DNA from: a virus
Direction: 5' to 3' (one strand)
DNA: 44,514 nucleotides
Virus genome (UHGV): UHGV-1355725
The notes beneath the pieces were generated by a model. The model saw only the letters and a program-made list of their open reading frames with translations. It was not told where the DNA came from and made no database searches. A program made the translations under genes and the position numbers. Positions 667 to 36,574 of the stretch are shown here, in pieces (the stretch's first letter is position 1; each line of letters opens with the position of its first letter).

Positions 667-3162
667 TTAATTAAAGCCATTGCTGAATCCGTCGGAGAAA
701 CCGCTGCCGTATGGCGCGACGCCGTCGTATTTGTAGAAATCCGCCTCATAATTAATCCCGGTAATCTTAACTGTTCTGTCATCCCCGGGGTCAACTGTAG
801 AAACAAGAATCATCTGAGCATTATGCCTTGCTTCGTTGCCAAATGAAAACTCAGTTTTTAGGGCGCTATTCCCTGTGTAAATTGCCTCCTGCGGCGCGGA
901 TAGCATAATCACTTCACGGTCATGACCCCCTGGAACAACAGCAACACTCTGGACACCGCCGTCGCGCTTCTTAAGGATAAGAGAGTGGTCATCACCAGGA
1001 GTGAATGTGACAGGCTGCGATAAAGTCAGGGCAAGACCATTAACAGCAACAACATAGCCGTCTTGGGGTGCAATACGTGAACCTTTAACTACACTTATTG
1101 CCCGTCCTGGAAGCACAAAAACACCTTCTTCTGTTGCCGTGAAAGACACAGTTACTTTTTTCAACAAGTTCTTTTGATACCGTCGGTACGCGGCCCAATA
1201 TGCCTGTCGATAGTTACGGATACCTTTAGAGTCATACGTTTCGGTATTAATTCCTCCTTCGGCCGGGATGCTAATAGTCTCTTTTACGTTCGTATCCGGG
1301 TCGATATAAGAGAACTTAAGACTATCGTATACCTGAGCGTCGTTAAATGTCCTGGTCCACTTCTCGGATGCCGTTGTTTTGCTACGGTGGGTGAATACCA
1401 TCTCCGGCCCCATGCGAGGGCGCTCGAAATCCAGTAATATGTCCTGCCCTTTACGATACGGCGTACAGAAAATAGCGTCGGCTATGGTGCTGATTATGTC
1501 CTGCATAGTCGTTTTGTAGTCATCGAACGTGTAGCAGAATTGCCCTGCCTCCGCGTTCCCAAAATAACCTTCAATCTCTGCCTGCGTAGCCAGCAACTTA
1601 TCCATGTTAGCTGTGGTGAGATTGAGATTACCTACTACCGGGTCGCGGGCGAGACGGATTAATGACTGAACGGCCTGGGTATTAGGCGTCATTACAGTGT
1701 CGAACACACCGTTACCGAGGTATTTGTAGACCATCTCCGTAGCGACCATTCGCAGTTGTGGTTGTTTAATCTCCGCCGCCCGCGGCGTCTGCTTACGCGC
1801 GGAGTGTACGGTAGTACGATTGCCGTAATGCGGCGTAGTGTCGCGAACCTGCCCGTAAAGGTTGATGTAGGAAACCTCGTCTACCACTGTACCGCCAAAG
1901 TCAAAATCAAAGTTACTAACCCTGCGACAGCGCACCCTAACCCTGGATTCAATTGGAAGGTCAGCGTACACAGTGGCACCCGTGTAATCGCTAGTACGAC
2001 CTGAAATAGTTCCCTGTTTATTGTATACAGGACCATAAGGAACTCCGTCATCTCCTATTAATTGGTACTGAACTTCAACGGTTACAGAGGTCCCCTGTTT
2101 ATTGCCGTCGTCTTTATACATGCCATTTGCCGCGGCGAAGTTTGCCACGACGCGCCCAACCTTTATTCTGTTAAGAGAGACCCAATCTGTTAGGCTAGCG
2201 TCATATGTGCCGGTAGGCCCTATGGTCGCGGCTTTATCCTGCGTTACATAGCCTTCACGCACTCCTCCCCCCTGATCTGGTAGAGTCTGCCACTCAGATA
2301 GTTTTGGGGAAGCATTTACCGTTATCTGGAATTCGTCCACACTTAATACGGAGTATACCCCGTCTAAATTACCACCGCCTTCCGGCCGTATCCATGTAAA
2401 TGTAGCTTGGTCTCCCGGGGCAATGTAGGTATTGAATGCCGAGTCTCCCGTTGGGTCGGTTATTGTCCCTGCGGTCCCGACAAGACGCGCGCGGGCCGAG
2501 CTGCCCACGTTGTTAGCGAGGTCATTTGGTGCTTTTAAAACAGCTCCGTCTACTTCATTGGACGCTATAGTTATGAATAACCCCTGGTTTATGGGGTCGC
2601 CGACCAACAACTGCGGGGCATTCGTGTTGTTGGGTGAAGTGAAAGGCGCGTACACAGCAACGGAGGTCCCGGTAATCTCCTGTACTTTAGTGTCCCCGTC
2701 GGTAATATCTTCTGCTTTAATATCAAGGTAACCGCGACCAGCATCATAGTATCCGTACTCAATAACACGACCGGCGGTATTAAATACCTTATACGTGGTC
2801 ATGAGGTCATTAGGGATAGTCTGGACCCTGCCGCAAATATCATACGACCGTTCATACGGACGCGATTTATTATTTCGGTCTGTCAGGCTGTTGTTGGGTG
2901 ACTCCGCTTGCTGGTTAGCAAGACTTGTTTTTGGTGTTTTCTGTGACGGTGAAATCAGCTTAGTAACAAACTTAAGTACACCTAACGGGTCGAGCAGTTT
3001 ACCCAGAAAACCGCCGCCACCCCCGGCACCCTCAATGATGTGGAATACATCGTCTTCTTTCAGCGCTTCGAAGTTTTCTGTAACTTCTGTATCTTCGCCG
3101 ATTTCACCTCGATAGATGCGAACGGGTACGCCGTCCGGGATGTTAGTGACGACGTATTCCAT
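667..3162 (-). CDS. large distal tail protein (tail tip / central fibre, J-like)
   Basis: 831-aa ORF from ATG at 3162 (MEYVVTNIPDG...); last large gene of the tail module before the tailspike; Gly-rich segment GAGGGGGF. Function is positional inference. Confidence 0.45.
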   Translation of the reverse strand: MEYVVTNIPDGVPVRIYRGEIGEDTEVTENFEALKEDDVFHIIEGAGGGGGFLGKLLDPLGVLKFVTKLISPSQKTPKTSLANQQAESPNNSLTDRNNKSRPYERSYDICGRVQTIPNDLMTTYKVFNTAGRVIEYGYYDAGRGYLDIKAEDITDGDTKVQEITGTSVAVYAPFTSPNNTNAPQLLVGDPINQGLFITIASNEVDGAVLKAPNDLANNVGSSARARLVGTAGTITDPTGDSAFNTYIAPGDQATFTWIRPEGGGNLDGVYSVLSVDEFQITVNASPKLSEWQTLPDQGGGVREGYVTQDKAATIGPTGTYDASLTDWVSLNRIKVGRVVANFAAANGMYKDDGNKQGTSVTVEVQYQLIGDDGVPYGPVYNKQGTISGRTSDYTGATVYADLPIESRVRVRCRRVSNFDFDFGGTVVDEVSYINLYGQVRDTTPHYGNRTTVHSARKQTPRAAEIKQPQLRMVATEMVYKYLGNGVFDTVMTPNTQAVQSLIRLARDPVVGNLNLTTANMDKLLATQAEIEGYFGNAEAGQFCYTFDDYKTTMQDIISTIADAIFCTPYRKGQDILLDFERPRMGPEMVFTHRSKTTASEKWTRTFNDAQVYDSLKFSYIDPDTNVKETISIPAEGGINTETYDSKGIRNYRQAYWAAYRRYQKNLLKKVTVSFTATEEGVFVLPGRAISVVKGSRIAPQDGYVVAVNGLALTLSQPVTFTPGDDHSLILKKRDGGVQSVAVVPGGHDREVIMLSAPQEAIYTGNSALKTEFSFGNEARHNAQMILVSTVDPGDDRTVKITGINYEADFYKYDGVAPYGSGFSDGFSNGFN

Positions 3163-3224
3163 AGGACTACTCGTGTGACGTTTACGGTCGAAGGTTCCGT
3201 CTTCGTTACGGGTGTAATGTAGTA

Positions 3225-3590
3225 TTAGCGCCAAAATTCTATCTCCGCATAAGTGTCTCGCAAGTCTTCCAGACGGTCTAATCTGACCTGACGGCTTGCG
3301 AGTTCGCAATGACTAACCATTCCGTCATAATATACGCCAGCGTGCCAGATTACACGGTTTCTGTGCCGCGCTGCCATCAGAACGGCATCGAAGTTTTGCG
3401 GAGTTTCAACACGTACAAGGCCTTTAGTGTCTTTATGGCCTTCTTCAAAGGCCGCATTAATCTGTGTTGGTGAGGCAACATTAAACTCCGGCGTGTCCAA
3501 ACCGGCGTCTGCGCGAACATTGCGGACATGGTGCCAGCAATTATGGCGGCGAAAGTCGTAAGGCAGACCCGTGTAGGTGTTAATTTTCAT
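3225..3590 (-). CDS. minor tail / tail assembly protein
   Basis: 121-aa ORF in the tail-tip cluster; Cys/His-containing motif RHNCWHH; overlaps neighbours by 4 nt (operon coupling). Confidence 0.35.
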   Translation of the reverse strand: MKINTYTGLPYDFRRHNCWHHVRNVRADAGLDTPEFNVASPTQINAAFEEGHKDTKGLVRVETPQNFDAVLMAARHRNRVIWHAGVYYDGMVSHCELASRQVRLDRLEDLRDTYAEIEFWR

Positions 3591-4102
3591 GTTGATAAAA
3601 TCCCACGCAATAGGGGTATTACTAAAGGCGTCATAAGTTCGCCTGTCGCCCTCTGATTGAGCATTGGTGCGCCGACGTCCGCCGTGAATATACCTTTTTC
3701 CTGGTTAATTGACTGTAACTCGTACACAACAGGCCCATCAGCAGGATAAGACAAATCAGTACTAACAAAACGGCGGAATATGAATTTAGGTAGCACGGTA
3801 TTATCGGGCGGTATCCTGTCCATCTCATCGTCTAACTGGTTACCAATGTCAGGCAATGCGAACGACGCCCGCTGGTCCATGTCGTTATTGTTGGCGGCCC
3901 CTTTAGCCTCCATAGGTGTAGCCTCAAACGTTACGACTTCTCCTGTCTCTAGCGTTGCCGTCAGGTCGGAAGTCCCTCGCACAAGATAGTACGTCTTCGA
4001 CAGCAACGGGTGGCTGATTTGCAACGTGATGTAGTCCATCTCGCCGTCTGGGTTTGAGGCCAGCTTACGGCGGTAGGCTGCTTCTACTGATTCCCGACTC
4101 AT
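3587..4102 (-). CDS. minor tail protein
   Basis: 171-aa ORF in the tail-tip cluster downstream of the tape measure gene. Confidence 0.35.
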   Translation of the reverse strand: MSRESVEAAYRRKLASNPDGEMDYITLQISHPLLSKTYYLVRGTSDLTATLETGEVVTFEATPMEAKGAANNNDMDQRASFALPDIGNQLDDEMDRIPPDNTVLPKFIFRRFVSTDLSYPADGPVVYELQSINQEKGIFTADVGAPMLNQRATGELMTPLVIPLLRGILST

Positions 4103-4105
4103 AAG

Positions 4106-5500
4106 TTAACCGTCCACATTAAAATCAATACGAGTGATATATTTACTACCCCACGCCGAATCCGCTTGGGGTATGGAGGCGTAACCGTCAACAGACGGAA
4201 CGTTTACCACAGTGCCGTCGGAATAGGTAATGTCGATGCTTGTTGCGCCGTTCATTGTTACTTTTGCTGATGCCGTCGTTCGGGTTACTGGCGACGCCTC
4301 AGTTACTACCGGCGACGTAGACAGGCCCAAGGAGTCACTTTGCGGTGTGCAAACGAGAACTCCGTTGGCCCCATCACCAGCAAATGTGGTTAAGTTTGAA
4401 TCGTTATGGACCCAAATCTGCATAGTAATGGCGCTGTATCCCCCTGCCGGGGCTGTTACTATTTCTGAGAAACGGAACCAACCACCCCCAAGATTTTCTA
4501 TAGAAGAGTTGGCGCTGCCGCCGATAATAACTCCGCTAAGCAGGTTTACGGTAACATCCGCTACAAATACCGCGTTATTGGCGATTCGTATACGGATATT
4601 GCGATACCCGTCCGCCTTAGCTATAACACTGAATGTACATACTCCCCCTTCAAGAATCTCAAACACCGGAGACTGTCCGACTAAGTGAGTGCCGTTATCT
4701 GTCGTTGGGGTTAGTTTAAAACAACCATTAACCAGCATTCCGGTTTGCGGTGATGGGGTTATTGACATGCGTGTAGTGGCCCACGCCACGTCCGCCAGAT
4801 TAGTGTTATGTAGTATGACGTTCTTAGATGTATATTCCGGTGGTACACGACCCGCAGCAACCCCATCAATAAACGTAAGGGGCCATTCATTTACGGCAGA
4901 CTGCACAAGACCGCCGTTTCGGTTGATGTAGTAAACCTGCGGCCCATCGTAAACAATGCGGCTATCCAGCGTGGACGCCAAAAGGTTAATCGGCGGGTGT
5001 CCTGCAGGCCCTTCATCGCTCCAGATGCGCGGGAACGTCGTCTCGTAGTTCGCATATATTTTCAGGAAACTACCCAAACCGTCTCCGTAACAACCGAACA
5101 AATCGGGAAGATTCTTGGTAAGACAAGTGTCTTCCTGAATTGCTGTGCGCTCTGCGGTAGCGGTGAACGTAATTACCCAGTTCTTGCCGTCGTCGGTGCT
5201 GTCGCTAATGTCAGACGTAATAAGCACCTGGTGGTCTTCGATACCTAACCCGGTGTCGTGCGGCATGATAAAAGACGATGCGCCGCCGTCTATGTTATTC
5301 AGGAAGCTATAGAAAGCCTGACGGCCTAGCGACGATACGACCAAGGTAACGCTAATTGGCACCGGTTCAAAGTATGTATCACGCCCCTGGCGTGGCACGC
5401 CGCCCTGAACTTCTGTACGCCAGATATTACTCCCTCGCATTTGGGAGTACCCCTTCGACACTATAGGCCGAAGGGACATAGGGAATCTCAAAGAAGACAT
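4106..5500 (-). CDS. minor/distal tail protein
   Basis: 464-aa ORF, ATG at 5500, immediately downstream of the tape measure gene (stop 5504). Confidence 0.4.
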   Translation of the reverse strand: MSSLRFPMSLRPIVSKGYSQMRGSNIWRTEVQGGVPRQGRDTYFEPVPISVTLVVSSLGRQAFYSFLNNIDGGASSFIMPHDTGLGIEDHQVLITSDISDSTDDGKNWVITFTATAERTAIQEDTCLTKNLPDLFGCYGDGLGSFLKIYANYETTFPRIWSDEGPAGHPPINLLASTLDSRIVYDGPQVYYINRNGGLVQSAVNEWPLTFIDGVAAGRVPPEYTSKNVILHNTNLADVAWATTRMSITPSPQTGMLVNGCFKLTPTTDNGTHLVGQSPVFEILEGGVCTFSVIAKADGYRNIRIRIANNAVFVADVTVNLLSGVIIGGSANSSIENLGGGWFRFSEIVTAPAGGYSAITMQIWVHNDSNLTTFAGDGANGVLVCTPQSDSLGLSTSPVVTEASPVTRTTASAKVTMNGATSIDITYSDGTVVNVPSVDGYASIPQADSAWGSKYITRIDFNVDG

Positions 5501-5503
5501 AGT

Positions 5504-7774
5504 TTAGTACCCCGGCTGGTTTCGTGTAGCTCGGCGTGACTTGGAGATTGCGCTGTTGCTGTCCTGCAACGCCGCCGATACTGTTTCGCTGATGATAACA
5601 CGTAACCGCCCTTCGTCGTCACGTTCTGTTACGGCGGAATCAACACGTCCGGTGGTGTTGTTAACAATTGTCACGCTGTCACCGCCTGACTTGTTGCCGT
5701 TCTCCCCCATAATCTGGCGCATCTGTTCGGCGGTACGGACGCGTGACGCCCCCGCTGGCATAATAACTTCAGGCTTGTTACGTTCCGCGATGGTAGATAG
5801 CTGGCCAGCTGCCAAGTTACCGCCCTGCTCACGCGCTGAGCGAATCTTTCCTATGTTCGCGAGACCTGCTGCTACGGCTGCTGCCGCTGCCACAGGGCCG
5901 AGTACCCAACCAACAATAGGAATCGCGGACGCGGATTTATAAGCCTCGATGGCAGAGGTGTATGTGGCGATGGTGGCCTGGGCGATAGCAAACGCTTTGT
6001 ACGCGGAGGATGCTTCTCCAAGCGAAGATTTAATATTGTCCGCCATCATACCGAAGGCGTTACCTGTAGCATTGGCACGCTTCAAAGCATACTGGTCATT
6101 TATGGCGTTAACCGCAGCCTGGTACTGTTCCTCGTTAATAAGATTCTGTTCACGGTATCGGTCAGCAACGTCCAGTTTTTGTTGTTCCTGAATTTCCAGA
6201 AGCTCAAGCTCAGTAGCGTTCTGGCCCATAATCTGAGCCATGAAGTCGTCACCTTTCTGCTGTTTTTCTTGGGCTTCTTTCTGGCGTTTATCCAGTTCAT
6301 CTTGTCGTTTTTGCCCTGCTTCGAGGACAATAGCCGTTTTTGCTTGCTCATATTCTTTCAGTGACAGCGCGCCCTGGCTGTAGAACTCTTTTGCCTTAGC
6401 CAGTTTCTGCTGTTCCTGCGCGTCAATAGCCTTTAACTCGTCGTTGTTCTGGCGGGCCAAAGTGTCGAGGTAATCTTGCGCCTGATTCCGCAATTGTTCC
6501 GCTTTCTTGGCGGCGGCTTTTGCCGCTTTATCGTCAGCGTTTCCGGTGCCGCCAGTTCCACCCTTTTTATTAACAAGGCTGGCTAAGTCAATTTCTTGCT
6601 TCTTGCGCTCGTCGTACTGCTTGCGCTGTTCCTCAATTTCTTTCTTACGCTGCTTAGACCTGTCTGTAATGGCCCGCGATTCAGCCTCTGCACGTTTTAT
6701 ACTGGCGGCGTATGCGGCGTCGGCCTCTGCGGTCAGGTTTTTAAAGGTGAGCGCTGCCGTTTTGCTCGGGTCAAACACGTCGGCAAGGGTCTGGCCTAAC
6801 GCTACTGCGTAATCGTCAATGCGCTGGAACCACGCAATAACCTCGTGGAATGTCTGCTGGATGTCAGGCAACCACTCACGTATGGCATCAGGTATAGCCC
6901 CCAGCGAATCTGACATATCCGCGGATTTGTCCTCGGTGTCGTATGCTAGGTCGTTCAAGGCATCGGAAATAAACTTGAACGACTCGTTGAACAGCGTCGC
7001 CCAGTCCTGGAGTGTGGCGGCTATCTCATTAGATGCGATGGCGTCGGTAAGCGCCGTTACAGCGTCTTCCGCCATCGCTGCTTGCTCACCCACGGCGTCA
7101 CCAAAACCGGATTGAGCTACCGCAAGAACAAGACCATCGAAGGAGTCGGCGAGGCTCGACAACTGACCATCTAAGGTCTTAGAGCGCGTCTCCATCGCCC
7201 CGGCGAAATCAGTGTTACCGATGTTTAACAGGTATTTCTGAATCTCTTCGGAGTTCTTTTTAACGGTGGTGGTAACCCCTCGGAACGTAAACGAAACTGT
7301 ATCCGCCTGTTGCGAAGACTTGATGCCAAACTCTTTCAGTCGTTCAAACTCAAATGTACTGGCGTCGGCAACTGCCTCAATCATCTGATTAAGGTCTTTA
7401 CCCATAGCCGCCGCGGTGTTGCCGTAGGAGATTAACGCCTCTTTGCTGGGGTTCAGGCCGAGGGCTACAAGTTTAGTGAAGCCCTCGACCGCCTGATTGA
7501 GACCGTACGGAGTTTCTTTTGCGAACTGTTGCAGTACGCTGAAAGCCTTAGCCGCGTTCTCTGCGCTTCCGGTCATTGTGATGAGGCCGGAATTCAGCTT
7601 ATCGAAGTTGCGCTGAGAGTCCACCAGCGCGCTGAACACCTGCTTAGCGGTTTCCAGACTGACAACGGCAGCGGCAGCAGCCCCCGCCGCCTTAGTAAGC
7701 CCGTTCAGTTGGGATGTGGTTTTATCGACGCCGGTCGATGATACTCGTACTATCAAGCTAGCGGTATCAGCCAT
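5504..7774 (-). CDS. tail tape measure protein
   Basis: About 756 aa from ATG at 7774 (MADTASLIV...); Ala/Gln/Lys/Glu-rich coiled-coil stretch (EIEEQRKQYDERKKQ...); directly downstream of the G/GT chaperone pair. Confidence 0.8.
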   Translation of the reverse strand: MADTASLIVRVSSTGVDKTTSQLNGLTKAAGAAAAAVVSLETAKQVFSALVDSQRNFDKLNSGLITMTGSAENAAKAFSVLQQFAKETPYGLNQAVEGFTKLVALGLNPSKEALISYGNTAAAMGKDLNQMIEAVADASTFEFERLKEFGIKSSQQADTVSFTFRGVTTTVKKNSEEIQKYLLNIGNTDFAGAMETRSKTLDGQLSSLADSFDGLVLAVAQSGFGDAVGEQAAMAEDAVTALTDAIASNEIAATLQDWATLFNESFKFISDALNDLAYDTEDKSADMSDSLGAIPDAIREWLPDIQQTFHEVIAWFQRIDDYAVALGQTLADVFDPSKTAALTFKNLTAEADAAYAASIKRAEAESRAITDRSKQRKKEIEEQRKQYDERKKQEIDLASLVNKKGGTGGTGNADDKAAKAAAKKAEQLRNQAQDYLDTLARQNNDELKAIDAQEQQKLAKAKEFYSQGALSLKEYEQAKTAIVLEAGQKRQDELDKRQKEAQEKQQKGDDFMAQIMGQNATELELLEIQEQQKLDVADRYREQNLINEEQYQAAVNAINDQYALKRANATGNAFGMMADNIKSSLGEASSAYKAFAIAQATIATYTSAIEAYKSASAIPIVGWVLGPVAAAAAVAAGLANIGKIRSAREQGGNLAAGQLSTIAERNKPEVIMPAGASRVRTAEQMRQIMGENGNKSGGDSVTIVNNTTGRVDSAVTERDDEGRLRVIISETVSAALQDSNSAISKSRRATRNQPGY

Positions 7775-18008: not shown

Positions 18009-18468
18009 ATTCTGGCTTAGTGACCTTCGCCGCTTTGCTTACCACCTCTACACCATCGGCATCGGTAACTTTAACGAAGTATTCACCCGCCGCGTTAACC
18101 GTCAGAGACAAAGCCTCTTCCGGGGCGTTGACTACTTCCTTACCGTCTTTGTACCAGGTCAGCACATATGGCGCTTTGCCCGCCTTAACTTCAACAGTGA
18201 TAGTTGCGCTGCCGTCTGCTGGTTCGACGTCTTTCGGTTGCACCGAGAAGTACACGTCACCCGCGTCCGCCAGATACGGAATCTCATAAAGCATACCCGC
18301 CGCCGGGAGCGCAATACCGGTTTTATCCGCAAACGGCATATCGTCTACCGGTGTACCTAGTACACTTTCATCTTCGATAAATACCACATTCTCGCTAGAG
18401 CCAGACACGCGGGCGTACTGGACTACGCGACGAGAAGGTACATCAGTTACTTTGAAAAAGCCCATCAT
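18007..18468 (-). CDS. Ig-like domain structural protein
   Basis: 153 aa; C-terminal Ig-like segment (ATITVEVKAGKAPYVLTWYKDGKEV...GEYFVKVTDADG); coupled to the head morphogenesis gene. Confidence 0.45.
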   Translation of the reverse strand: MMGFFKVTDVPSRRVVQYARVSGSSENVVFIEDESVLGTPVDDMPFADKTGIALPAAGMLYEIPYLADAGDVYFSVQPKDVEPADGSATITVEVKAGKAPYVLTWYKDGKEVVNAPEEALSLTVNAAGEYFVKVTDADGVEVVSKAAKVTKPE

Positions 18469-20405
18469 TATTCCCCTTTCAGATAATCAGCAACACGTCT
18501 ATCGAGTTCCGCCATCTGCTTAAGCGTGAGCGGATTCCCGAAACCATCTACAGATATTACGCGAAACTCTTCCGGCGATATACCGCTGTTGCGGAAAATC
18601 TTACCCCGCACCGGGCCTAACGCCTGGTCCTGAAACCATGCAGGTTGTTGTTTAAGGAACTCGTAATAAGTGGTGTCCGCACTTACCTGAGTTCCGCCAT
18701 CTGCACCCTTAGCCGCGCGTTTTGCGCCTTTATCCAGGAAGTCGAACTCTGAACTGATTACAGGTGCCGTGGTACTTCGGCAGCCAAAATGGGCTGGGGG
18801 CATTGGCCCTTTACCAATCTCCCACGTCATTCCGTCTCTGGCCCTGCAATTCTTGACTATCGCACTACCTGCTGTATAATATCCTTGACTACTAGAGAGG
18901 GTATAAACATGGCACGTTCTAAACTCGACGCTTATGCGGATGATATTTGTTCTTTGTACCGAGATGGCACTCCCGCCAGCATCATAGCCAAGAATTACGG
19001 CGTCACTACCACCACGGTAACAACATTTCTCAAGAAGCTCGGACTCATGCATGATCGACCCCGTGGTTGGGTTTCTAACGACACCATTTTGAATCAAAAA
19101 AGGGCTATAGAATTGTTCGAGTCCGGCGTCCCGCCTATTGAGTGCATAAGAAGGACCCAAGTCAGCAAAACAGTTTTCTATTCTATGGTCAAAACACTTG
19201 GCCTCGCTAAGCGCGGGCACACTCACAGGACATTCACCCCGGAGGAGAAAATCGCCAGAGCTATCGTCCGACAGCAAAGCGGCGCTATGAATAAGACTGA
19301 AACCATCGCTTTTGAATTGTTTAATTCCGCTGGCGTGGACGTAGTTCCGCAGTTTGCAATCGGCCCGTACAATGTCGATTTTGCCATTGAGTCCCACTCC
19401 ATCGCCATAGAAATCTGTTGCCGCGGGACTCGTGCTTACCATTTTCCTGATGGGGAAATCAGCGAGCGTATTAAAAATATAATCCGCTCTGGCTGGCATG
19501 TTTATGTTCTTCACTGTTTCGAGCACAGTCACTTTGTCAACAGTGGTATACAAGACATGCTTAGTTGGATCGAGTTCATCAAGCGGAGTCCATCCGTATT
19601 GCGTGAGTACAGGGTGTTTCGGGGTGCCACTGAACTTCTCGCCGTTGGAAAGTTCGATGGTAAAGATTTTTCCTGAATAGAGTCCGCGCATTACCGCGTC
19701 CATCCCCGCGATGGGCGCTAATTCTGTTTCAGCCGTGAAACACGTTGTACTGGTACGGCTGTCCAATGTTGATACCCACTCATATTTCTCGATGATGTCG
19801 TCGTTCTGGCGGTACGTCTCGTTACGTGCTTCATTGGACACGTGAGACAGCGCGGTGCGGATTACAGTAGCCGCGTTACGTTCAGAGATGTCAGCCAGTC
19901 CGCCAGCGCCTACAACACTTTTAACAATCTGCCGCGTAGTTTGGCCTTGTACGAAGCCCATCTTAACGCCAGTTACCAGGCGCGCGACTTCTGTTTCACC
20001 CCAACCTGACATCAGCTTGGTGAAGTCAACAGGCTTGTCGCTCAGTGAGAGCGGCTGAAACTCGGCGGCGGCCCACACCTGTTCTGCGGTAGGTGTAACA
20101 AATTCCGCGTTAACGTTGGCGGTCAGTGTCTTTACGTTCCACTCAGCCTCATACTTCGCCAATTCCTTAAGGTCTTCTGTCAGCTTTGTTTGCCAGTCAC
20201 CTGTAAGCCAGGTTAGCGCTTCTTCAAGGTTGAGTAACAGTTTATTCAGTCGCGCAGTGCTCCGCCCGTCGTCGCCGAATAACAGCACCTGCCGTTTGAT
20301 TTCGTCCCGCATTTCCTGAATGAACGGTGCAAGGTCTTTCACTTCTCCGGAAGCGGTTCGTTGCAGCCATATCTGGTGGCTGATTAAGGATGTAAGTAAG
20401 CTCAT
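18468..20405 (-). CDS. head morphogenesis protein (SPP1 gp7 / Mu F-like) interrupted by an intein
   Basis: ATG 20405 with RBS AGGAGG; F-like motifs WVSTLDSRTSTT (before the intein) and GKGPMPPAHFGCRS (after); 298-aa insertion with intein signatures between them; located just after the portal gene. Confidence 0.7.
   Translation of the reverse strand: MSLLTSLISHQIWLQRTASGEVKDLAPFIQEMRDEIKRQVLLFGDDGRSTARLNKLLLNLEEALTWLTGDWQTKLTEDLKELAKYEAEWNVKTLTANVNAEFVTPTAEQVWAAAEFQPLSLSDKPVDFTKLMSGWGETEVARLVTGVKMGFVQGQTTRQIVKSVVGAGGLADISERNAATVIRTALSHVSNEARNETYRQNDDIIEKYEWVSTLDSRTSTTCFTAETELAPIAGMDAVMRGLYSGKIFTIELSNGEKFSGTPKHPVLTQYGWTPLDELDPTKHVLYTTVDKVTVLETVKNINMPARADYIFNTLADFPIRKMVSTSPAATDFYGDGVGLNGKIDIVRADCKLRNYVHASGIKQFKSDGFSLIHSAALLSDDSSGDFLLRGECPVSVPALSEAKCFDHRIENCFADLGPSYALNRRDAGLEQFYSPFLIQNGVVRNPTTGSIMHESELLEKCCYRGGSDAVILGYDAGGSAISVQRTNIIRISVEFRTCHVYTLSSSQGYYTAGSAIVKNCRARDGMTWEIGKGPMPPAHFGCRSTTAPVISSEFDFLDKGAKRAAKGADGGTQVSADTTYYEFLKQQPAWFQDQALGPVRGKIFRNSGISPEEFRVISVDGFGNPLTLKQMAELDRRVADYLKGE
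18853..18880 (+). promoter_or_regulatory. near-consensus sigma70-type promoter inside the intein, antisense to the head morphogenesis gene
   Basis: TTGACT (18853-18858), 16-bp spacer, TATAAT (18875-18880); RBS GAGAGGG and ATG 18909 follow. Confidence 0.5.
18909..19676 (+). CDS. nested antisense gene: HTH domains plus DUF559/Vsr-like (PD-(D/E)xK-type) endonuclease domain, candidate homing endonuclease
   Basis: 255 aa from ATG 18909; two HTH-like segments (IIAKNYGVTTTTVTTFLKKLGL; IECIRRTQVSKTVFYSMVKTLGL); C-terminal YNVDFAIESHSIAIEI...RSGWHVYVL resembling Vsr/DUF559 endonucleases; lies entirely within the intein on the opposite strand. Confidence 0.55.
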   Translation: MARSKLDAYADDICSLYRDGTPASIIAKNYGVTTTTVTTFLKKLGLMHDRPRGWVSNDTILNQKRAIELFESGVPPIECIRRTQVSKTVFYSMVKTLGLAKRGHTHRTFTPEEKIARAIVRQQSGAMNKTETIAFELFNSAGVDVVPQFAIGPYNVDFAIESHSIAIEICCRGTRAYHFPDGEISERIKNIIRSGWHVYVLHCFEHSHFVNSGIQDMLSWIEFIKRSPSVLREYRVFRGATELLAVGKFDGKDFS

Positions 20406-20448
20406 AGGCCCTCCTGTAGTATCGACAGTGTAACGCATAAAAATAATA

Positions 20449-20481
20449 TTTGCAGACACCAATATAATAGGGTACTATTCA
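20449..20481 (+). promoter_or_regulatory. class-1 promoter with embedded inverted-repeat operator
   Basis: TTGCAG (20449-20454), 17-bp spacer, TACTAT (20473-20478); inverted repeat AATAG-GGTA-CTATT 20466-20479; 40-nt block identical to the copy at 17689. Confidence 0.5.
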
Positions 20482-20506
20482 GTTAACTTAAACAGGGGGG
20501 TTAAAA

Positions 20507-20791
20507 ATGACACACAAATTTAAAGGTACAGACGGCGCATGGGTTAATCACGGAACAGCTATCTGGGCGGGGGACGTTTATGTGGCCGAGGTAATGAGTA
20601 TGCGGGAAAAGGACTCCGTAAAATTAGCTAACGCAAAACTTATCACCTCGGCACCCGAGTTACTTGAAGCACTTCGCCAGCTTCGCGATTACGTCGAGGA
20701 TGTTTGTGCAGTATCTTCTGATGATTGCCATGAAGACCATCCATTAAATCGGGCCAACAGAGCAATCAAGAAAGCATTAGGAAAGAAATAA
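20507..20791 (+). CDS. hypothetical protein (single-gene insertion)
   Basis: 94-aa ORF between the head morphogenesis and portal genes on the opposite strand; own promoter and terminator. Confidence 0.5.
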   Translation: MTHKFKGTDGAWVNHGTAIWAGDVYVAEVMSMREKDSVKLANAKLITSAPELLEALRQLRDYVEDVCAVSSDDCHEDHPLNRANRAIKKALGKK

Positions 20792-33992: not shown

Positions 33993-34022
33993 TTGACAAC
34001 ATGAATAGTTAGCTATTATAGT
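33993..34022 (+). promoter_or_regulatory. class-2 promoter with embedded inverted-repeat operator
   Basis: TTGACA (33993-33998), 18-bp spacer, TATAGT (34017-34022); inverted repeat AATAG-TTAG-CTATT 34004-34017. Confidence 0.55.
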
Positions 34023-36545: not shown

Positions 36546-36574
36546 TTGACACCTGAATAGTTAGCTATTATAGT
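36546..36574 (+). promoter_or_regulatory. class-2 promoter with embedded inverted-repeat operator
   Basis: TTGACA (36546-36551), 17-bp spacer, TATAGT (36569-36574); inverted repeat AATAG-TTAG-CTATT 36556-36569, identical core to the copy at 34004. Confidence 0.55.

Follow-up and report, generated by a model that had tools for sequence, protein, structure and literature searches.

Intein and opposite-strand gene in a phage head morphogenesis gene

The 44,514-nucleotide stretch UHGV-1355725 (hereafter the window, meaning the whole of the DNA analysed) belongs to a Kagunavirus-like (Guernseyvirinae) phage of E. coli. Positions 18468..20405 of its minus strand encode the precursor of a head morphogenesis protein of the Mu F/SPP1 gp7-like type, 645 codons long from the ATG at 20405; the mechanically delimited open reading frame (ORF) extends further, to a TTG at 20462. 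The gene matches 164 phage records at 80-95% identity, and its product matches phrog_241 'head morphogenesis' (1.9e-143) and Pfam Phage_Mu_F (PF04233; 9.1e-08). Within it lies an intein (18849..19742, minus strand, 298 codons or 894 bp), and within the intein, on the plus strand, a 255-codon gene for a nuclease-like protein (18909..19676). The composite is quite probably a mobile intein whose homing endonuclease comes from the separate gene on the opposite strand.

Only four of the 164 matching records (fEg-Eco06, vB-Eco-KMB36, BEU35 and Ec1-ASingh) cover the full gene. The insertion is absent from about 160 related Kagunavirus and Jerseyvirus records, whose matches are exactly 894 bp shorter. 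In a protein alignment with the intein-less homologue of fFiEco03, the joined exteins (347 aa) are collinear with their counterpart and the 298 extra residues are located at ...SRTST(T/I)^CFTAETEL...AIVKN^CRARDG, where ^ here and below marks a junction. The intein runs from Cys1 (TGT, 19740-19742) to Asn298 (AAT, 18849-18851) and is directly followed by the codon of the +1 Cys (18846-18848, minus strand). This comparison with intein-less homologues confirms the insertion point and the intein hallmarks that the original prediction, made from the letters of the window, had assigned to the minus-strand ORF. Two intein-bearing GenBank records name the product 'minor head protein with inserted intein'; the plus-strand gene is not listed in either of the two annotated intein-bearing records examined. 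The region 18300..20600 has no Rfam match at E<=1, and the idea that the carrier might instead be a group I intron or another structured RNA was rejected.

All key intein residues are present, namely Cys1, T40-P-K-H43 of block B, Asn298 and Cys+1, and relatives with 19-40% identity retain them. Block B (TPKHPVLT, residues 40-47, T40 to H43 included; 19602..19625, minus strand) is placed by HMMER alignment to block B of the Mtu RecA intein (PI-MtuI); the profile, drawn from four homologous intein frames, matches it with an E-value of 1.1e-6. The same four-frame profile reached 60 relatives, against two partial matches for the window intein alone in a word-indexed protein search. Blocks F/G (HVYTLSSSQGYYTAGSAIVKN, residues 278-298; 18849..18911, minus strand) are canonical in form, HVYTL...GYYTAGSAIVKN, except for a penultimate Lys; they show 81% amino acid identity and 14% third-position divergence in the clade. 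The AlphaFold2 model of the intein, built on a 61-sequence alignment, gives predicted local distance difference test scores (pLDDT) of 84-97 for residues 1-70, 71-88 for residues 81-130 and 92-96 for residues 261-298, the stretch that takes in blocks F/G. Both ends of the insertion are modelled as a HINT fold at pLDDT 84-97. The central part (residues 136-256; 18975..19337, minus strand) is modelled as disordered, with pLDDT below 50 for residues 136-142 and 156-256. The earlier claim that this centre has no recognisable endonuclease holds: no in-frame endonuclease domain was found in it. These features support the assignment of the minus-frame insertion to class-1 inteins, as one that would lack an in-frame endonuclease. 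As modelled, its HINT domain would be built from about residues 1-70 (possibly to 135) together with residues 257-298.

One might instead suppose that the insertion does not splice, that a nuclease gene invaded the head gene in antisense, that the host tolerates 298 additional residues and that the intein motifs are relics. Splicing is called into question by the penultimate residue, Lys where His is usual (a variation, not a change of a defining residue), and by profile scores below the curated cut-offs for PF14890 (21.8 bits against a gathering threshold, GA, of 35.8), TIGR01445 (17.8 against 24.5) and TIGR01443; the homologous intein L007 exceeds the TIGR01445 cut-off, with 36.4 bits. SPP1 gp7-type proteins are minor head components, so a defect in such a component might be tolerated. 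Set against this, the splicing residues are conserved over large distances, the ends of the insertion are under intein-frame constraint and confidently modelled as HINT, and the insertion directly precedes a conserved Cys, as class-1 splicing requires. Three viable lytic phage isolates, moreover, carry the intein. We regard a non-splicing insertion as very improbable and retain the reading of a splicing intein.

The plus-strand gene consists of 255 codons and a TGA (19674-19676), the stop being the antisense of intein Ser23 (TCA). Its ATG at 18909 falls within a longer mechanical ORF (18789..19676). The start at 18909 is backed by a Shine-Dalgarno sequence and by the homologue L005, in which a stop in the same frame precedes the equivalent ATG by 8 codons. 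The start at ATG 18789 (295 aa) was rejected, as it would have the gene begin in extein sequence and ahead of the promoter-like site described below, and as the in-frame stop of L005 falls between the two ATGs. The encoded protein contains two helix-turn-helix (HTH) modules (residues 7-43 and 57-96; 18927..19196, plus strand) and a Vsr-like, PD-(D/E)xK-derived nuclease domain (residues 129-250; 19293..19658, plus strand), the latter antisense to intein residues 29-150. Its AlphaFold2 model shows two three-helix HTH modules and an alpha/beta domain of the Vsr/I-Bth0305I type at a mean pLDDT of 73.7, on an alignment of 4 sequences only. The sequence profile of the nuclease matches the bipartite HTH protein 2lvs (3.7e-6) and, weakly, 3r3p, and the predicted bipartite HTH forms an N-terminal DNA-binding region. 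An exhaustive profile search with the nuclease returned 9564 protein clusters with E-values up to 1e-3, of which 303 reach 1e-30 or lower. The two HTH segments of the original prediction are thus confirmed by profile and model, and the ORF is conserved alongside the intein in distant relatives.

The DUF559/Vsr-like label attached to the protein fares less evenly. A Vsr-like fold is predicted; the Pfam search gave zero match to PF04480 (DUF559) or PF03852 (Vsr). The Pfam matches obtained are weak and fall short of the curated thresholds: HTH_7 at 1.6e-4 and the restriction-endonuclease-like MTES_1575 (PF18741) at 6.8e-4, the latter with 20.1 bits against a GA of 38.2. On its model, the protein is predicted to fold like Vsr-type nucleases, yet it stands outside PF03852, PF04480 and PF18741 by their own cut-offs. 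Profile and model together support the plus-strand ORF as a real gene for a putative HTH-HTH-Vsr-like nuclease.

Two frames in one codon register

The codons of the two frames are in exact register, plus position 1 being minus position 3, and nuclease residue j faces intein residue 279-j. Of the 298 codons of the intein, 255 are overlapped by the nuclease ORF, those of block B and block F among them. The bases of block B, TPKHPVLT, read on the plus strand as REYRVFRG (nuclease residues 232-239), a motif conserved in all homologues. The catalytic-strand motif AIEI of the nuclease, which holds E168, is complementary to DFYGDG in the intein frame. This hexapeptide is nearly invariant in the intein family of the window, is to our knowledge not a motif of ordinary inteins, and is probably a shadow of the nuclease frame. 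The HTH modules lie opposite the disordered linker, and the first nuclease helix opposite block F. According to the two models, at least about 60 codons (intein residues 29-70 and 261-278) are predicted to encode canonical HINT strands in one direction and confident nuclease elements in the other.

Because the frames are in exact codon register, TTA, CTA and TCA are the only codons that give a stop on the opposite strand. None of them occurs among the 255 codons of the overlap, where the Leu and Ser codon usage of the phage predicts 6.6 (P ~7e-4); the 390 codons of the head gene elsewhere hold 12 (Fisher P 0.005), one of which is the TCA of Ser23 that complements the nuclease stop. Among the other genes of the window, none of 3704 segments holds a 255-codon in-register antisense open frame, the longest extending to 186 codons. 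With exact register, and with synonymous replacements for TTA, CTA and TCA, the overlap is therefore cheap to keep.

The same arrangement recurs in relatives. In L004, L005 and L011 (44-54% nuclease identity) and in L007, L009 and L010 (23-27%), an intein lies opposite the nuclease, in the same register and stop-free. A scan of IMG/VR identified 536 stretches encoding nuclease relatives, for which a 9-sequence subset was used, the alignment of 55 nucleases being too divergent for the locus scan; 80 of the 536 loci were fetched for frame analysis. In 79 of these 80, the in-register antisense frame is open over the whole nuclease match, within an ORF of 277-1138 codons; the remaining two antisense frames average 9 and 16 stops. 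In most of the loci a Mu-F-like host gene is interrupted at PPxHPN^CLPGD...THN^CRC. The original prediction had named a lack of conservation of the plus-strand ORF in related genomes as a sign of a chance frame; the ORF is conserved.

The register lets each substitution be assigned to the intein or the nuclease frame. Over intein residues 126-275, first positions differ between homologues at 0.51-0.68 and third positions at 0.24-0.61; the amino acid identity of the nuclease over this region, 0.32-0.68, is two to three times that of the intein frame, 0.12-0.33. From intein residue 51 the direction is the same, with the nuclease frame more conserved, and less sharp; throughout residues 51-275 changes are concentrated at intein position 1, which is nuclease position 3. 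Over residues 1-50 the intein frame is equally or more conserved than the nuclease frame. In residues 276-298 identity is about 80% in either frame, and even the third positions of the intein diverge by only 0.14, which fits an extra regulatory constraint. Selection on the nuclease frame is seen also at short distances: the five near-identical copies of the element have 6 variable sites; read in the nuclease frame, 4 of these leave the amino acid unchanged and 2 are conservative (I133L, I221V), whereas 5 of the 6 are non-synonymous in the intein frame.

These patterns bear on the possibility that the plus-strand ORF is a chance antisense frame, a non-coding shadow of the intein codons. In its favour, no type of antisense frame stays open more readily than one in register, neither of the two annotated records mentioned above lists the ORF, and its Pfam matches are weak. 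A mere shadow sits poorly with a confident Vsr-like fold joined to two HTH modules, with a family of thousands of protein clusters, with an ORF that for the greater part is better conserved than the intein frame and changes by a third-position substitution pattern, with the recurrence of the improbable stop-free state in distant loci, and with the free-standing homologue L036. As far as sequence analysis reaches, the chance-frame explanation is refuted, and we give it next to no credence.

Taking the ORF as a coding gene, we lean slightly towards an obligately two-stranded element, nearly every base pair of which is read both ways, over a gene lodged in the linker of a splicing domain. If both products are made, the overlaps (255-292 codons) would be among the longest and best-conserved antisense overlaps known in bacteria and phages. 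Long overlapping genes in antisense are a contested subject in the genomics of prokaryotes, and the element offers an unusually clean natural example, with folds predicted for both products and signatures of selection that differ by strand. The upkeep of the overlap is explained by a simple rule, codon register and avoidance of three codons. Register also permits either product to be knocked out by changes silent in the other, which makes the contribution of each strand testable.

Expression signals, recent spread and homing

A sigma-70-type promoter-like site, TTGACT-16-TATAAT (18853..18880, plus strand; -35 at 18853-18858, -10 at 18875-18880), agrees with the consensus at 11 of 12 positions and is followed by the Shine-Dalgarno sequence GAGAGGG (18895..18901, plus strand), 7 nt before the ATG at 18909. 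The near-consensus promoter and ribosome-binding site of the original prediction are thereby borne out as sequence features, and both are kept in the clade: the hexamers and their spacing in L004 (with CATAAT), L005 and L011 (TTGACA..TATAAT, 12/12), and GAGGG at equal spacing in the same three. This conservation is confounded by the strong amino acid conservation of blocks F/G, in whose codons the promoter, the ribosome-binding site and the nuclease start codon all lie. The -35 is written in the codons of Val296-Lys297 and the -10 in those of Tyr288-Tyr289 (TAT TAT) of block G; as the -35 is formed by Val-Lys codons, the unusual penultimate Lys supplies the TT of TTGAC. In the 44.5-kb window there are 3 sites of 11/12 or better, against 0.56 expected. 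The only other two, both on the plus strand, are TTGACA-18-TATAGT at 33993-34022 and TTGACA-17-TATAGT at 36546-36574, and are by their sequence likely to be genuine host-polymerase promoters of the phage. A pattern scan also found a terminator-like hairpin (19696-19718; 9 pairs, 6 of them G-C) with a T-rich tail (19696..19728 in all, plus strand), which matches the consensus only; it lies 20 nt past the nuclease stop, still within the intein.

Codon choice in block G of distant relatives points in the same direction. We compared 57 distinct block-G sequences from IMG/VR loci L013-L092 with the expectation from the codon usage of the same ORFs. In the THN clade, Ile-Ile is written ATT-ATA (antisense TATAAT) in 14 of 19 distinct sequences against 1.6 expected, and Ile-Val is written ATT-GTA (antisense TACAAT) in 9 of 18 against 0.8 expected; these tests ignore shared ancestry, and since the loci are not phylogenetically independent their P values are no more than indicative, which tempers the case for a promoter. 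The biased Ile codons sit three residues from the intein end, and the bias holds in contigs of 55-68% G+C. In several other block-G sequences a TATAAT lies 17 nt deeper inside, formed by His/Tyr-Tyr codons. For the intein that Kagunavirus Snoke carries at a second site of the head gene, a standard sigma-70 scan gave no promoter of two hexamers upstream of the nuclease; direct reading gives an extended -10, TGcTATAAT, in block G codons of Snoke and the Jerseyviruses.

Comparison of the window with the four other intein-bearing phages gives 99.4-99.8% identity within the element, whereas the flanking 100 bp on each side are 85-94% identical, no higher than to intein-less phages, and across these five diverged genomes the identity break coincides exactly with the intein boundaries. 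This disparity between element and flanks therefore indicates recent homing. Extein codons -2/-1 on the N-terminal side (19743..19748, minus strand) are ACA ACG (Thr-Thr) in all five intein-bearing phages in a junction alignment, and ACG ATT (Thr-Ile) in intein-less alleles; the pattern fits recent homing with very short co-conversion tracts. A pseudo-palindrome beside the insertion site of some intein-less alleles, CGTAC-CA-GTACG, was considered as a possible target; it is not conserved among intein-less phages, and no conclusion was drawn from it.

A second conserved Cys motif of the head gene varies near the element. At 18780-18791 the minus-strand codons of the window read His-Phe-Gly-Cys, within PPAHFGC, and many relatives have PPAHPNC. 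The HFGC allele occurs in KMB36, Ec1-ASingh, G AB-2017 and SHAK7693, the HPNC allele in fEg-Eco06, BEU35, KMB35 and fFiEco03, and both are found in intein-plus and intein-less Kagunaviruses. HPN^C is the position of a second intein of the same class in Snoke and about 20 Jerseyviruses. That the clustered 4-5 nt difference between the alleles marks a resistant homing site is pure conjecture.

In the mechanism we favour, the late minus-strand head mRNA would be translated through the 298-codon intein, and the class-1 HINT domain would excise itself, by means of Cys1, Thr40/His43, Asn298 and Cys+1, joining ...SRTSTT to CRARDG... and restoring the normal 347-aa Mu-F-like protein. The sigma-70-type promoter and ribosome-binding site on the plus strand would drive the 255-aa HTH/Vsr-like (EDxHD-related) protein. 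In a mixed infection this nuclease would cut an intein-less allele at or near ...AGT ACG ATT^TGC AGG GCC... (AGTACGATT^TGCAGG), and recombinational repair would then copy the intein together with the nuclease gene into the cut allele. Transcription, splicing and cleavage are the steps that we infer from the anatomy, the folds and the pattern of selection and spread.

Cleavage is the step most exposed to an alternative, in which the plus-strand gene is real and is not, or is no longer, the homing enzyme in the window clade; it might be an inactive remnant, a DNA-binding or regulatory protein, or a weapon against co-infecting phages (marker exclusion), and the spread would be owed more to general recombination or to another nuclease. 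Its catalytic residues give a mixed picture. E131, D157 and E168 are invariant and correspond to E170, D196 and an extra acidic residue of I-Bth0305I. The general-base His (Vsr H69, I-Bth0305I H213) is found in most of the family, in the THN clade as GGGWH, whereas the window, L004 and L005 do not conserve it; in L005 a Lys also replaces Glu186, the last acidic residue (I-Bth0305I D222). These departures, like the sub-threshold scores of the window protein for MTES_1575 and DUF559 and the existence of decayed versions elsewhere, such as the 174-aa, HTH-less copy in L098, favour a protein without homing activity. What speaks for retained function is an ORF that is intact and under purifying selection in all clade members, together with the invariant acidic residues, while an identity break placed precisely at the ends of the intein is the mark of homing to a specific site and not of general recombination. 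Catalytic activity of the window protein is, from its sequence, plausible. We consider the non-homing alternative unlikely and keep to the reading of an intein mobilised by its opposite-strand nuclease, a reading limited by the small number, four, of divergent members available for the window's own clade.

Relatives and comparison with known systems

Among cultured phages the composite of intein and antisense nuclease occurs in Kagunavirus Snoke, about 20 Jerseyviruses, Aaphi23 and the Gordonia phages Fosterous, Affeca and Vivi2. Its exteins are not confined to head proteins: it is found also in uracil-DNA-glycosylase (UDG), dCMP-deaminase and VG15 exteins, with intact antisense nuclease copies in a dCMP deaminase (L099) and a VG15 protein (L100). 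The 174-aa remnant of L098, antisense to a UDG-family gene (1001-2386) on a contig of Logan SRR18214642, looks like a decaying copy. In Snoke (L101; MK931441, 781-2640) and Salmonella phage vB_StyS-sam (L102), a 273-aa intein interrupts the same head gene at PPAHPN^CLLGD...IIAHN^CRSTT and carries an intact in-register antisense 249-aa nuclease (family hidden Markov model, HMM, E 1.6e-68) whose stop complements intein Leu2. The latter gene is unannotated in Snoke and partly annotated, as a hypothetical protein, in vB_StyS-sam. The class of elements is common, and it has been systematically missed or mis-annotated since gene callers report one strand only.

Three further loci are of separate interest. 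L010 (IMGVR_UViG_3300031576_000021; minus ORF 2800-5799) is a single Mu-F-like gene with two inteins, DDRV^C...HN^CPVC and HPN^C...HN^CRC, each with a nuclease on the opposite strand (plus ORFs 2788-3621 and 3814-4971); the second nuclease is of another type, with CPxC repeats and a DUF559 match above the Pfam cut-off (33.4 against 20.6 bits). L036 (IMGVR_UViG_3300012005_000094; plus ORF 2495-3355), the sole exception among the 80 loci, encodes an intact free-standing 286-aa homologue that adjoins a Mu-F-like gene with an uninterrupted HPGCRC; its C-terminal motif is REYHLVW, not the block-B complement REYRVVW. This locus bears on which state came first, the free-standing or the embedded. In L012 (GCA_001292545.1, CYGL01006417.1; gene 414-1130, P0004), a predicted 238-aa protein with a terminase-like N-terminal part contains the last 105 residues of the window intein (100% identical) and 7 extein residues followed by unrelated sequence, and probably reflects either chimeric assembly or recombination.

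The original prediction took the arrangement to be undescribed for inteins. This does not hold, to judge from the accessible part of a preprint (Gosselin, Arsenault & Gogarten, bioRxiv 10.1101/2025.01.02.630785), on which the comparison in this and the following paragraph is based. Antisense LAGLIDADG ORFs in inteins, for example that of Synechocystis DnaX, go back to 1998 (Gorbalenya 1998; Gogarten et al. 2002; both as cited there). They share with the window an endonuclease opposite the intein and an open intein frame, and differ in the nuclease, LAGLIDADG in place of Vsr-like with HTH, and in residing in cellular genomes, not in a phage.

The preprint itself describes antisense VSR-like genes in full inteins that interrupt proteins of actinophages, among them minor capsid proteins, a class first described in 2025. 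The window element is a further case of this class, in a coliphage. As there, the intein is contiguous and the nuclease ORF lies antisense inside it (18909..19676 within 18849..19742), the in-frame centre is without recognisable structure, and the antisense product matches Vsr. In tblastn the window nuclease shows homology to the strand opposite MuF-like genes in Gordonia phages (E 2e-10 to 4e-12), and the antisense ORF of Gordonia phage Affeca, in register with its intein, matches the family HMM at 1.7e-85. The two cases differ in host, an E. coli phage (Kagunavirus) as opposed to actinophages; in insertion site, SRTST^C at the first Cys motif as opposed to HPN^CRC; and in the Lys-Asn end of block G, unlike the described inteins. 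The nuclease ORF of the window spans block B and block F, whereas in the HPN^CRC clade, the largest, it extends to a stop that complements the codon of intein residue 2. The accessible part of the preprint makes no mention of occurrence in coliphages or Salmonella phages or of abundance in viral metagenomes, nor of the codon-register rule, the block G promoter or an overlap over canonical splicing-domain codons.

A different solution is seen in fractured genes, where the two parts of a split intein flank a free-standing VSR-like (EDxHD) endonuclease gene (Dassa et al. 2009, PMC2677866), and in I-Bth0305I (Taylor et al. 2011, PMC3239194). Common to these systems and the window are a catalytic domain derived from Vsr with a DNA-binding region N-terminal to it, a polypeptide separate from the intein, and phage genes as hosts. 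The EDxHD motif is only partly kept in the window, in E131, D157 and E168, the His not being conserved in the clade. In fractured genes, the host gene and intein are broken in two with the nuclease between them; in the window the intein is contiguous and the same base pairs are read twice. The element itself has been seen before: an intein of about 900 bp mentioned for phage vKMB36 (PMC11162368) is the window element, at 99.6-99.8% identity, and there only the intein was noticed, not the plus-strand gene, the promoter or the homing signature. With the Kagunavirus and Jerseyvirus cases, a class described in 2025 for actinophages only, as far as the accessible part of the preprint extends, now reaches well-studied, easily manipulated enterobacterial phages, in which it is open to experimental testing.

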